Below are positions 21,801 to 24,800 of a stretch of 64,000 nucleotides of DNA, piece after piece. The first letter of the stretch is position 1. Each line of letters opens with the position of its first letter. Origin of the DNA: Vulcanimicrobiota bacterium (lineage in GTDB: Bacteria; Vulcanimicrobiota; Vulcanimicrobiia; Vulcanimicrobiales; Vulcanimicrobiaceae); NCBI GenBank assembly GCA_963714015.1, contig OY970223.1, positions 768,001 to 832,000 on the forward strand, written 5' to 3'. A program made the position numbers.

Positions 21801-24800
21801 TAAACTGAAGAAAAGGGCGAGTCTCGGCACCCTCGCCGTCTTGACTCTTCCGGTTCTGCTCCTTGCGGTTGGGAGCCCGTGGCTTGGTCTGAGCCTGGCT
21901 TGCGGCGGAATCGCCGGCCTACTCAACGCGCTGCTCTCGATGCACGGGAACGAACGCCTTTTGGAGCGCCGCAGCGTTGCAGCGTTCGTCTTAAGTAGTT
22001 TCGTGCGAATCGGCCTCTTCGGTATAGTGCCCGTGGTGCTGACGGTCGAAAAACCGTCACTTTGGACGCTAGGTTGCTACTTCGTCGGGTTTTTTACACC
22101 ACTCGCAGTCTCGGGAATACTGGTTCATCGGCGCGACCGCCGAGGCGGCTAAATGGGGCATTTGAGTGCACGAGAAAATAGGCGAACACTACACGTGGCA
22201 GTGGCCCGTGCTGGGCACGGTGCACTCCGACACGATCGTGACGACGTGGATCGTCATGCTCATTTCGCTTGTTTTCTTCGCTTGGATTGGCGCGAGCTAT
22301 CGTAGCGCGCGGGTCAGCAAGCGCCAGACCGTCGTCGAAGGCGTCATCAACTATATCGCCGACTTGGCCGCAGGCGTCCTGGGCGAGCAAGGCGAGCCCT
22401 TCGTGCCTTTTTTCATCGCGCTCTTTCTTTTCATTTTCCTGTTGAACCAATTCGGATTCTTGCCGCTCAAAGCGTTCGGACTCCCGTTCGGAGGCTCGCC
22501 TACGGCGGATCTGAACACGACGCTCGCGTACGCGCTCATGGTTTTCGTCCTCATTCAGGCTGTGGGCATCCGCAAGTACGGCATCGGTTTTTACAAGCAC
22601 CTCGCGAAGCCGTTTTGGGTTCTGACGCCGATCAATCTGCTCGAAGAGCTGGCGCGTCCTGCAACGCTGGCAGCCCGGCTTTTCTTCAACATTTTCGTCG
22701 GTGAGCTGCTGTTCATCATCATTGCGTCAATCATCACTGCGAAGGTCATGATCGGTCCGGTCAACCTCTCGCTCGCAGTGACGATCGTGCCGTTTTTCAT
22801 TCAATTTTTCAACTTTTTCGTCGGCACGATTCAAGCGTTTTTGTTCACCCTGCTCGCAATCGTCTATCTCTCGTTAGCGGTTGCGGAAGAACACTGATAG
22901 TACGGAAAGGGTACGAAGTTGAGTTCTGAAGCGTTAATTGCAGCCTTCACCTTGCTGGCGTTCGGCATCATCATTTCGGGCGTCGCAATGGGGTCGGCGA
23001 TCGGCGACGGCAACGTTGCGTCCAAAGCGGTGGAGTCCATCGCCCGTCAGCCGGAGGCTCGCCCGAATATCCTGACCTTCATGTTCCTCGGCGTGGGCGT
23101 GCTCGAAGCGTTCCCGATTATTGCGCTGGGGCTCGCGTTCTACGTCCTTTTGGTCGTGGCGCAGGTTCCAACGCTCATTACGCACGTCTTGGCCGGCGGC
23201 GCGCACTAAGAGCACGAGCGCGCATGTTTCTTCAGCCGGACGGGACGTTTTTCGTACAACTGATCAACTTCGCGATCTTCTTCGCGTTGTTGAACGTCGT
23301 GTTCATTCGTCCCGTCGGCCGAGCGATTCGGCAGCGGCGTGATTACATCAACAGCGTCACGAACGACTACGACCGCTATCAGGCCGAAGCGGCTTCGTGC
23401 CGCAGCGAAGCCGAGGCGATTCGCGCCGCAGCGCGTCGCGAGGCCGGGGAGATGCTCTCGAAGATCCGCGCACAGGTTTCCAACGAGTCTGCGGAAATGG
23501 CCGCCGGTTTCAACCGGCAGGCTTCGGAGATCGCGGACGATGCGCACCGCGCGGTAGCCGTCGAGCTCGAGAATGCGCGTACGCGACTTTCTTCGGATGC
23601 GGCCGAGCTTGCCGGAATGATCGTTGCGCGAACCGTCACGGAGCTCGCCCGGTGAACTACGAATCCGTTGCGCTTTACAGCCAGGTCGCGTCGGCCGCGT
23701 TGTTCGTCCTGGCCATGATCTGGATTTGGGTGAAGTTCATCCAGCCTGCGGTTCTAAGTGCGCAGCAGAATCAAAATGCCGCGCTCGCCGAGGCCGAGCG
23801 CCACCGCGATGAAGCCAAGCGCGTACTGGACTCGCTGCAAGGCGAGATCGACAGCGCCAAGCAAGACGCCGCGGCGATCAAGAGGCGCGTCGAGGCGTTG
23901 GCTGCGGCCGAACGCGAAAATGCCTTGCGCGAAGCCCGCGAATTCGGCGAAAGAACGCTCCGCAACGCCCGCGAGGAGCTGCCGCGCAGCCGCGCCGCGG
24001 CTCGCGAACAGCTGCGGGAAGAGCTCGCCTCGCGGGCGCTGGGGCTCGCCCGCGTCGCAGGCGCAGCAGCGCGTCGACGGCGGCGTGAACGCACAACTCG
24101 TCGGCTCGTTCCTTGCAAATCTCGAACGCGGCGGGCGTAACTAGTGCCAAATGAAAGGCTCGCGCGCCGGTACGCGCTCGCCGTCTTTCAGCTCGCGAGC
24201 GAGGCGAACGTAGTTGACGTCGTCGGCGCCGACCTGCGCACGATTTCCGAAGCGATTTACGAGGACGAGTCGACGAAGGGTTTCTTTCTTGCGCCGGTCA
24301 TCGATCGCAAGGAAAAGGAGCGGGTGCTGAGCGCAGCTTTCGGCGGCAAAGCGCACGACATTACGCTGCACACGCTGCTGCTCCTCGTGCGCAAGCGTCG
24401 CGAGGCGCTGCTGCGCGAGGTGGTTGCACAATACGCGCAGTTGCAGCTCCAGGCGCGCGGCGCCGAGCAGCTCGTGGTAACCACCGCCAGGGAACTGCCC
24501 CCTGCGGAGTCTTCGTCCATCGTCGGACGCCTCGAAAAGATTTACGGCAAGAAGTTCGAGGCGCGTCAGGTGGTCGATCCGTCGCTTATCGGCGGCTTGC
24601 GCGTGATGATGGGCGATCGCCGCATCGACGGCTCCGTCGACGGCCGCCTGGAAGAACTCTCTCGGACGCTGTTCGCCGGAAACTGATATGAACGCAACTG
24701 TAAAAGATCAACGAATCTCGATGCGCCCTGCGGAATGGGGGGCCCCATTTATGGGGGGCGCGGAGTCTGGAGCGGAGCGCCTTTTAAAATGATCAACGCA

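Follow-up and report, generated by a model that had tools for sequence, protein, structure and literature searches.

A structured repeat of about 120 nt lies between genes of core operons in the 3.56-Mb genome of a member of the Baltobacteraceae (Eremiobacterota), and at most of its sites it ends directly at the start codon of the next gene. We judge it probable, at roughly three chances in five, that this is a non-autonomous repeat, mobile now or until recently, which settles in sense orientation where one operon gene stops and the next starts, and whose construction keeps the downstream gene translated, working in much the same way as the MIRUs of mycobacteria. This reading is drawn from comparison of sequences: the anatomy of the junctions, a covarying RNA fold, reading frames that bridge the element, and sites that are empty in a genome of the same genus.

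Copy number and distribution of the repeat

Using the copy between atpH and atpA as the sole query, nhmmer returned 20 matches in this genome and, on iteration, 42. With the covariance model R1 the count at E ≤ 0.01 is 49, and 45 of these matches reach E ≤ 2.2e-6. A preliminary description of this DNA had counted 46 copies at 28 loci. That the family is real, has many copies and occurs at many loci as singletons and arrays is borne out; the counts become 49 or 45, according to the threshold of the covariance model, and 31 strand-specific clusters. These are single copies and head-to-tail arrays of 2-5 copies with a period of 108-131 nt. The orientation of the repeat follows the genes and not the chromosome arms, and the copies are direct except for one inverted pair.

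At 20 clusters the repeat is flanked on both sides by sense-strand genes named by NCBIfam, for example fabZ>lpxA, atpH>atpA, rpsH>rplF and sufS>sufU. The repeat-bearing operons identified in this way include those for ribosomal proteins, atp, nuo, gyrA/B, mreB, pknB and fli, and five copies are inside the S10/spc ribosomal protein operons. The gene names given earlier are the same by NCBIfam, apart from "nuoM", which scores best as nuoN.

The repeat was matched in 68 of 101 genomes of the family, leaving 33 without a match, and in none of 76 genomes from 20 other families of the phylum, so that among the genomes searched its restriction to one bacterial family is upheld. It is conserved across 52 of the 78 genera sampled. 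The family is one of uncultured soil bacteria, although Vulcanimicrobium alpinum (PMC9758169) is a cultured member of it, and the phylum is barely cultured. The absence of the repeat from Rfam likewise stands: across the window, the whole 64-kb stretch of this genome that was analysed, only a tRNA reaches the gathering score, and around the atpH-atpA copy nothing relevant appears at E ≤ 10. No description of the repeat was found in open-access text or bioRxiv in searches on Eremiobacterota, Baltobacteraceae, and intergenic or intercistronic repeats.

Two loci are in the window (Table 1). The atpH-atpA copy, matched by the covariance model at contig positions 792657-792791 (E 1.4e-18), is 5'-truncated; next to full copies, its helix P1 is missing the 5' strand, and the CCC-NNN-GGGG module is absent. 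The apical stem of its hairpin P3 is degenerate, and the GGAG earlier called a Shine-Dalgarno sequence is at 24774-24777, inside P3. Its hairpin P2 differs from that of the relative L003 by an A-U to G-C exchange. The atpA start directly follows the repeat, as had been described, with the ATG at 24789-24791 and not at 24790. In the murA-mreB array the first four copies have neither P3 nor tail and the last copy is complete; the mreB start is 9 nt beyond it and is preceded by a GGAG of its own.

Table 1. Features of the two repeat loci, in window positions
Feature	Position	Strand	Basis
atpH (F1 delta subunit), upstream cistron	24144..24686	+	ORF list, stop TGA at 24684-24686; NCBIfam F0F1 ATP synthase subunit delta, E 2e-39
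Repeat copy filling the entire atpH-atpA spacer	24687..24788	+	Sequence; nhmmer and covariance-model matches
Bridging mini-ORF, 34 codons	24688..24792	+	ATG 1 nt past the atpH stop; TGA at 24790-24792 overlaps the atpA ATG as ATGA
Hairpin P2, CCCCA/UGGGG, 4-nt loop	24743..24756	+	RNAalifold; compensatory changes among the counted pairs
Hairpin P3: basal stem GGCGC/GCGCC, 3x3 internal loop GGA/GGA, short apical stem	24757..24781	+	Covariation; basal stem paired in full-unit fold predictions
U4A3 tail, predicted single-stranded, directly before the atpA start	24782..24788	+	Sequence; unpaired probability
atpA (F1 alpha subunit), downstream cistron	24789..26288	+	Start MINADEI common to relatives with and without the repeat
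Second repeat locus: five head-to-tail copies in the murA-mreB gap	30964..31526	+	nhmmer and covariance model; NCBIfam

RNA fold, start codons and bridging reading frames

The unit contains three covarying helices, the long-range P1 and the hairpins P2 and P3. Their cells are paired in 97% of cases, against 36-65% when the partners are slid, and nine pairs are doubly changed. For the two 3' hairpins in other genera, in a set of 34 copies from 29 loci with the alignment fitted to the model, 99.3% of cells are paired against 44-64% slid, with 53 doubly changed cells and none of 500 shuffles as high. This confirms the covariation first reported for these hairpins, and the detection of P1 removes the statement that the 5' half of the unit has no supported structure. 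The greater stability of the sense strand is also confirmed: it holds for 20 of the 21 copies compared in this genome and for 30 of the 33 from other genera. RNAalifold proposed a further long-range helix, CGCCC/GGGGG, which was set aside as unsupported, having no informative variation and competing with the covarying P1. In fold predictions the GGA of the P3 loop is unpaired, the G of GGAG and the following CGCC are paired in P3, and the tail, at -7 to -1, has a mean unpaired probability of 0.55-0.78.

The repeat ends as ...GGAGCGCC-UUUU-AAA at a same-strand start codon in 22 of the 31 clusters. Counting only starts of ORFs of at least 50 codons at an offset of -1 to +2 from the model's ATG gives 21, to which rpmJ, with 37 codons, was added. 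Among the abutted genes are atpA, gyrB, lpxA, sufU, rplF, rplN, rpsS, rpmJ, pknB and nuoN, and several of the starts, those of lpxA, gyrB, sufU, rplF and atpA, agree with HMM coordinates or with the N-termini of relatives. In other genera the repeat ends at a start codon at 24 of 29 loci, and the abutment on which the preliminary description was centred is thus secure. The last A of the repeat and the TG of the target would together make up the start codon. The tail and the start-codon join belong to the unit even where no gene follows. In five of the non-abutting clusters the start is 9-17 nt downstream (mreB, pdhB, rplK, one unnamed ORF, and an accB-like gene that sits behind a duplicated repeat tail). 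Of the others, one is beside tig, which is divergent, two are formed by the inverted pair, beside a tRNA-like end, and one is probably a false match (E 0.005). The abutment has a practical consequence, in that gene callers will set starts wrongly at repeat sites; the longest atpA ORF begins 54 nt early, and the rplE start falls inside the repeat.

At the 22 abutting clusters only repeat sequence is upstream of the start, so that translation starting there must use the 3' end of the repeat. It had been proposed that the repeat supplies the whole translation-initiation region, and a reading confined to this, in which the GGAG of the P3 loop is a working Shine-Dalgarno sequence and the repeat a portable ribosome-binding site acting independently of any coupling, now appears rather unlikely. 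The 16S rRNA does end in CCUCC, and the loop GGA and the tail are predicted to be unpaired. The GGAG is 11 nt before the AUG, as was stated and as the sequences of the copies bear out, and among other ORF starts this spacing is some three-fold enriched, with 14 cases where the background is about 5. It is nevertheless far for a Shine-Dalgarno sequence, as had been remarked, being at the far edge of a native GGAG spacing that peaks at 7 nt, and a Shine-Dalgarno core is found at only 292 of 1269 ORF starts (23%). These native values come from a noisy set, the first in-frame ATG of 1269 crude ORFs; an EM start-site model was discarded since it converged on in-frame coding periodicity. The GGAG is also one half of a symmetric internal loop, 5'-GNA/5'-GNA, in which the triplet is also conserved on the opposite strand, and because of this location its conservation is at least partly structural. 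Of the 21 copies examined here 6, and of the 34 elsewhere 8, have GAAG or GCAG in its place, with a 3' triplet GAA or GCA, and many of these still abut starts. The excess of bridging ORFs described below would also be left unexplained. What stands of the proposal is the anatomy of the 22 clusters.

The tail itself persists before starts. Tail-only remnants precede atpA in the relatives L012 and L016 and two ORFs of this genome, and only 16 of the 1269 other ORF starts have a tail as AT-rich as that of the repeat (at least 7 of 8). A plain search for GGAGCGCC gave 378 sites and was uninformative; with a tighter pattern, two convincing solo tails were found among nine matches outside the known copies.

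The preliminary description missed a reading frame that bridges the element. Of 36 junctions, 25 have an ATG at -4 to +6 from the upstream stop, compared with 114 of 602 convergent gene ends, and in 17 of the 36 a single ORF crosses the element completely and ends at a stop codon that overlaps the start downstream. Were the frame of the ATG random, bridging would be expected in 8.7 of the 25 (P ~8e-5), with the junctions being partly orthologous, hence non-independent, and the upstream stops of other genera being set by the longest open frame. Bridging ORFs through arrays reach 129 and 112 codons. In the other 19 junctions the ORF is absent or broken, for example at pknB, rplF, sufU and cpaF. 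The atpH-atpA junction is bridged in the relatives L003, L035 (from a GTG), L136 and L147, and is without a bridge in L137. Neither the frame nor the peptide is constant from copy to copy, so that what is kept is openness and not a protein. We infer that the bridging ORF provides a second route of translation, based on coupling.

Mobility and the mode of insertion

A genome of the same genus, G075, is free of the repeat at all 8 of the 8 junctions examined, where it has TGAATG, TAAATG, GTGA overlaps, or spacers of 2-25 nt. From the compact or overlapping form of these empty junctions it follows that the repeat was gained recently and precisely between stop and start; the earlier view that the repeat is or was mobile is upheld. 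At three filled sites the start codon is ATG and that of relatives is GTG, which fits a repeat that contributes the A. The unit of the pknB array includes the last 7 nt of mrdA, from which it follows that this array grew by duplication in place.

Duplications at the flanks vary: there is none, one of about 4 nt (NTGA), or, in the relative G199, one of 7 nt (ATGGTAA). Neither a target-site duplication of fixed length nor insertion by an N|TG rule accounts for all sites; the lpxA, pknB, gyrB and acyl-ACP-reductase junctions fit in different ways, and sufU and the duplication in G199 do not fit. PF01797 (Y1_Tnp) is without a match in the single-contig genome, with positive controls, and RVT_1 is absent from it, so that no candidate transposase emerged. 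Retro-mobilisation was considered in view of the 5'-truncated copies and variable duplications and was not retained, given that there is no RVT_1 and that the truncations are explained more simply by selection for the 3' tail.

On the reading favoured here, the repeat has entered junctions that are compact or overlapping in relatives, and its arrays grew later by tandem duplication. Downstream translation would be kept by two built-in routes. In the first, an ORF would open with an ATG that is located at the upstream stop or overlaps it and is most likely the original start codon, now displaced; this ORF would cross the element from end to end and finish at the UGA in AUGA or at a UAA 1-2 nt before the AUG; ribosomes from the upstream gene would melt P1-P3 on the way and then re-initiate. 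In the second, the 3' end of the repeat, with the GGAG in the P3 loop and the A/U-rich unpaired tail, may serve as a stand-alone or stand-by ribosome-binding site.

The strong covariation of the three helices and a G..A/G..A loop that is invariant across genera, together with the more stable sense strand and the placing of copies in core operons, could also be those of a domesticated post-transcriptional module. A protein specific to the family would bind its P1-P3 fold, or an RNase would cut it, setting the relative translation or the mRNA stability of neighbouring cistrons in growth-related operons, and the abutment would then be regulatory and more than merely tolerated. Endonucleases typically act where a stable hairpin adjoins a single strand rich in A and U. 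We consider this unlikely. Occupancy is patchy even within the genus, as G075 illustrates, and with the matchless third of the family genomes it indicates that essential genes do not need the repeat; copies per site also vary from 1 to 5.

Palindromic cores (GGCGCC, GGGGCCCC) raise a DNA-level alternative, a protein-binding site of the REP/BIME type or the hairpin ends of a single-strand transposon, with the translation features merely filtered by selection. The wobble-pair test of the strands counts 15 cells of the G-U type and 10 of the A-C type, with a single doubtful pair accounting for 8 of these 10; it discriminates weakly and leaves this some room. It is quite improbable all the same: no Y1 transposase was found in the genome, copies are head-to-tail rather than in inverted pairs and oriented by genes rather than by chromosome arms, and the tail and start-codon join are part of the unit itself. 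An intrinsic terminator or attenuator, with P3 and the U-tract stopping or pausing RNA polymerase between cistrons, is suggested by a G+C-rich hairpin followed by UUUU but is very improbable, as the repeat is not among the 10 terminator-like sites of a consensus scan of window positions 24000-32000 (at least 5 U in 8), the tail has U3-4 and then A3-4, internal array copies often have no U-tract or P3, and efficient termination would be harmful within the S10/spc operons and before atpA, gyrB and nuoN.

Comparison with known repeats

The kind of element is not new, since close analogues have been published. MIRUs (Supply et al. 1997, as cited in PMC12548453 and PMC3184786) enter at start codons and have a coupled ORF, the spacing being -4 (PMC12548453). 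As these sources describe them, they share with the present repeat the intra-operon position, the gene-sense orientation, the occurrence singly or in head-to-tail arrays, some 40-50 copies per genome, and insertion at start codons. Filled and empty sites differ between relatives in both. The MIRUs have an internal ORF that begins where the upstream gene ends and terminates in an overlap with the downstream start (-4); the bridging ORF, present here at about half of the junctions, may be its counterpart. The MIRUs belong to another phylum, and the likeness put forward here is one of architecture as described, with no claim of descent. Relative to that description, the present unit, at about 120 nt, exceeds the 40-100 nt of MIRUs, has three covariation-supported helices and an SD-like GGAG with a U4A3 tail abutting the start, and lacks an intact bridging ORF at the remaining junctions. 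The direct repeats of four nucleotides reported for MIRUs are not consistently seen around it.

The REP2 repeats of Neisseria and the IR repeats of Borrelia, in the account given by the review of Delihas (2011; PMC3184786), carry a ribosome-binding site together with an ATG, are of similar size, lie immediately upstream of genes and have two internal stem-loops. REP2 is described there as carrying a promoter and heading transcription units, whereas the present repeat is intra-operon and forms tandem arrays. A simple consensus scan for sigma-70-like promoters gave 0 sites in window positions 24000-32000, which hold 6 copies.

REP/BIME sequences, REPINs (with their RAYT transposases), ERIC and Correia elements are structured, transcribed intergenic repeats that are sometimes intra-operon and affect the fate of the mRNA. 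They usually follow genes or sit between convergent ones, in many cases as inverted pairs or bounded by terminal inverted repeats, and to our knowledge they do not end at start codons. The present repeat differs further from REPs and REPINs in its direct copies, the one pair excepted, and no RAYT-type gene was found in the single-contig genome with PF01797. Set against a MITE, with its terminal inverted repeats and a target-site duplication of constant length, the inverted repeats seen in the covariation analysis, P1-P3, are internal and not terminal, no search aimed at terminal repeats having been made, and the flanking duplications are 0, about 4 and 7 nt at different sites.

A purely selfish repeat would leave unexplained the retention of three RNA-sense helices and the GNA/GNA loop in 52 of 78 genera, as well as the concentration in ribosomal, ATP synthase, gyrase, flagellar and cell-wall operons.

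Tentatively, and as an unlikely case, the repeat may be an RNA-structured cassette that targets stop-start junctions without a Y1 transposase or reverse transcriptase, with the three-helix fold and GNA/GNA loop read by a host factor or the ribosome to set the hand-over of upstream ribosomes to the next cistron. If this were true, it would be a family-wide, evolvable dial of operon stoichiometry, independent of the MIRUs in origin.

If the repeat is instead, as we favour, a mobile element that works like a MIRU, then the solution of a repeat that enters start codons and brings its own ribosome hand-over would have arisen or spread far beyond the mycobacteria. It would provide a second, independent system, with a covarying RNA fold and with clean filled and empty sites within one genus. 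Such a system opens the questions of how repeats of this kind find start codons, what coupling and the built-in ribosome-binding site each contribute, and whether operons tune the ratios of their subunits with them.

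Repeat copies and their place at start codons

The 102-base gap between atpH and atpA is made up of one copy of the repeat. With this copy as seed, nhmmer identified 20 matches in the genome under study (G000; 3.56 Mb, 60.9% G+C, one contig) and 42 once iterated. From 21 full copies (alignment A1) a covariance model of the repeat, R1, was built. Its 49 matches with E<=0.01 group into 31 strand-specific clusters; 45 of the matches reach E<=2.2e-6. The family of the preliminary description stands, its tally of 46 copies at 28 loci being revised; it is real, beyond chance, and larger than first described. 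As had been reported, no Rfam family matches it. The arrays are head-to-tail with a period of 108-131 nt. The period is shorter (108-110 nt) in the murA-mreB array because four of its units are without the 3' hairpin P3 and the tail, and mreB's own GGAG sits a few bases past the last unit.

Features of the repeat and its junctions (upstream>downstream; ?, side not named)
Feature	Position	Strand	Remark
atpH stop	window 24684-24686	+	TGA
Bridging ORF, window copy	window 24688 (ATG) to 24790-24792 (TGA)	+	34 codons
ATG opening the longest atpA ORF	window 24735 (24735-24788)		in frame within the repeat
atpA start	window 24789-24791	+	ATG
Second array	window 30964-31526		murA-mreB gap; 5 copies
rplX>rplE repeat	L113:5456-5620 = G000 contig 2280530-2280690		
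Inverted pair (locus L116)	G000 contig 2740117-2740287		by a tRNA-like end
BCCP and GmhA frame	L103:2000-3169 = G000 contig 753328-754497		
Abutting junctions by NCBIfam			fabZ>lpxA, atpH>atpA, sufS>sufU, mrdA>pknB, ?>gyrB, ?>gyrA, tsaB>rimI, ?>purP
Abutting, flagellar, by NCBIfam			fliF>fliG, fliG>fliH, flgE>flbD
Abutting, ribosomal, by NCBIfam			rplB>rpsS, rpsQ>rplN, rplX>rplE, rpsH>rplF, ?>rpmJ
Abutting			rpmE>prfA (name prfA from the preliminary description)
Abutting, one side named			ORF>nuoN, HMG-CoA lyase>?, CpaF/TadA ATPase>?, acyl-ACP-reductase-like gene>?

In 21 of the 31 clusters the start codon of an ORF 50 codons or longer falls between -1 and +2 of the model's ATG; rpmJ (37 codons) raises this to 22. 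The starts of lpxA, gyrB, sufU, rplF and atpA are backed by HMM coordinates or the N-termini of relatives. On sequence grounds, that of rplE is most likely the ATG within the repeat tail (GGAGCGCC-ATG CTT AGA TTG): its peptide MLRLKEKY is equal in length to the MNRLKEKY of three relatives, and 5 of the 6 bases in codons 2-3 are unlike the same-genus gene and resemble repeat-tail sequence. The longest atpA ORF opens inside the repeat, and longest-ORF gene callers would give atpA 18 false extra codons.

There are exceptions. The starts of mreB, pdhB, rplK and an accB-like gene are 9-17 nt beyond the repeat, the last placed after a duplicated repeat tail. Two clusters adjoin divergent genes. The inverted pair combines a full copy with a P3-plus-tail remnant, next to what resembles a tRNA gene's 3' end; it has no abutting ORF and is outside the operon rule. 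One non-abutting R1 match is probably false. Of 29 loci taken from 29 further genomes in the host's family, 24 abut a start codon (-2 to +1); in three a start follows after 14-19 nt, and two lack one. Separately, a single open frame at locus L103 encodes two domains, biotin carboxyl carrier (BCCP) and GmhA sedoheptulose-7-phosphate isomerase; this reflects either fused genes or neighbouring genes that share a frame with no stop in between.

Structure of the repeat and its GGAG

Covariation of the two 3' hairpins, P2 and P3, is borne out. P2 has the form CCCCxx/xxGGGG; P3 is built of a G+C basal stem (5 bp), an internal loop (3x3) and an apical stem (3 bp), the last alternating between GCC/GGC, GGC/GCC, GCU/AGC and GGU/ACC. 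The 5' half had been considered to have no supported structure, but it takes part in a long-range helix, P1, in which a 5' GGCGC(C) block pairs with a GCGCC block 40 nt downstream. Among 34 copies taken from other genera P1 shows covariation: pair 12/59 is G-C in 19, C-G in 11 and A-U in 1, pair 10/62 is G-C in 11, A-U in 8 and G-U in 8, and pair 15/55 is G-C in 31 and C-G in 2. Taking the structure as a whole, pairing holds in 97% of cells, compared with 36-65% once the partners are slid, and none of 500 shuffles is as high. The alignment fit gives P1 no advantage because P1 was absent from the model that made the alignment. The helix proposed in its place by RNAalifold shows no variation at all.

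In whole-unit folds P2 and P3 are predicted to form, with the GCGCC after GGA paired and the U4A3 tail open (unpaired probability 0.55-0.78). The sense strand folds more stably in 20 of 21 copies in G000 and 30 of 33 in other genera; the direction is as first described, where the count was 20 of 20 copies. Wobble-pair counts do not settle the functional strand.

The internal loop of P3 is symmetric, with 5'-GNA on each strand (GGA/GGA 13, GCA/GGA 7, GGA/GAA 4, GGA/GCA 3), and the conservation of GGAG is therefore at least partly structural. It had been taken as a Shine-Dalgarno sequence, making the repeat a ready-made initiation region. Before 1269 crude ORF starts (first in-frame ATG, repeat-linked starts excluded), GGAG is enriched at spacings from 4 to 11 nt: the count peaks at 7 nt (29) and is 14 at 11 nt, the background being about 5. 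The repeat's GGAG is within the usable range of spacing, but at its far edge. Shine-Dalgarno use is weak across the genome despite a 16S rRNA ending in CCUCC, a core (GGAG, GAGG or AGGA at -17 to -4) being present at just 292 of these starts. Since such cores are scarce and just 16 of the 1269 starts have a final octamer that reaches the A+T content of the repeat tail, the 3' end of the repeat is an unusual initiation region here. The mechanism first proposed covers half of the likely picture.

Empty sites and bridging frames

The same junctions were compared in the same-genus genome G075 and four further close relatives. G075 is empty at 8 of 8 (lpxA, sufU, gyrB, pknB, rplF, acyl-ACP-reductase, CpaF and rplE), which supports the mobility claimed earlier. 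The empty sites are compact at sufU (TGAATG) and gyrB (TAAATG), overlapping at pknB and the reductase junction (GTGA) and at CpaF (ATGGTAA), and elsewhere are spacers of 2-25 nt. At the compared junctions the element or array in G000 fits exactly between stop and start. The lpxA, pknB and reductase junctions have GTG starts in relatives and ATG in G000; the element's last A would complete the start codon, which would fit this difference.

Further lineages have filled sites: G197 at sufU, G199 at CpaF, G196 at the reductase junction (a copy truncated at its 5' end), and six or more genomes at atpA. In two relatives, L012 and L016, the atpA ATG is preceded by a solo tail only, ...GGAGCGCC-N-UUAAA, and G000 holds two similar solo tails. 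The unit of the pknB array includes the last 7 nt of mrdA, thus the arrays expanded where they stood, through tandem duplication. Flanking duplications vary (none, ~4 nt or 7 nt). Searches of G000 for Y1 transposase and reverse transcriptase domains found none, with control searches positive. In G196, in-frame stops or split matches are seen in the homologues of lpxA and pknB (L154/L155, L170); these look like assembly frameshifts and not biology.

At the 5' border, an ATG is found at -4 to +6 of the upstream stop (ATGA, TGATG, TAATG, or 1-6 nt on) in 25 of 36 junctions, 14 of these 36 being in G000 and 22 in other genera, against 114 of 602 convergent gene ends of G000. Because of the empty sites, the simplest reading is that this is the displaced original start codon. 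In 17 of the 36 junctions a single ORF from the border ATG crosses the whole element or array (129 codons in the gyrB array, 112 in that of HMG-CoA lyase), with its stop overlapping the downstream start (ATGA) in 11 cases and just before it in six. A random ATG frame would give 8.7 of 25; P is ~8e-5 on the assumption of independent junctions, which is not wholly true. In the alignment consensus a UAG in the P3 loop closes the frame of the gene itself, and the other two end at UAA or UGA at the junction. At atpA, five of six copies are bridged, their frames and peptides differing, therefore it is openness that is kept, not product.

Distribution and relation to known elements

Within the host's family, R1 has matches at E<=1e-5 in 68 of 101 genomes, spread over 52 of 78 genera; the genome tally counts six unpublished genomes, all matched (62 of 95 excluding them). 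In a phylum sample, 27 of 44 genomes from that family had matches, against none of 76 genomes searched from 20 other families; the confinement to one family first described holds among the genomes searched.

In Delihas 2011 (PMC3184786), MIRUs (mycobacterial interspersed repetitive units) are intergenic within a polycistron, with ORF ends overlapping adjacent genes, and the Neisseria REP2 and Borrelia IR repeats bear a promoter, ribosome-binding site and ATG. In PMC12548453, which cites a 1997 description, MIRUs are inserted at start codons with a coupled ORF at -4 spacing. In its way of working this element resembles a MIRU and, in part, REP2; the likeness to the MIRU is one of working, with no claim of descent. 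REP2 has a promoter, whereas a simple consensus scan of window 24000-32000 found none, hence the present repeat is not filed with REP2 by descent. No account of this repeat was found in open-access text and bioRxiv. The kind of element is already known; the novelty lies in this family, in how it folds and in the phylum that hosts it. Any function past being tolerated is putative.
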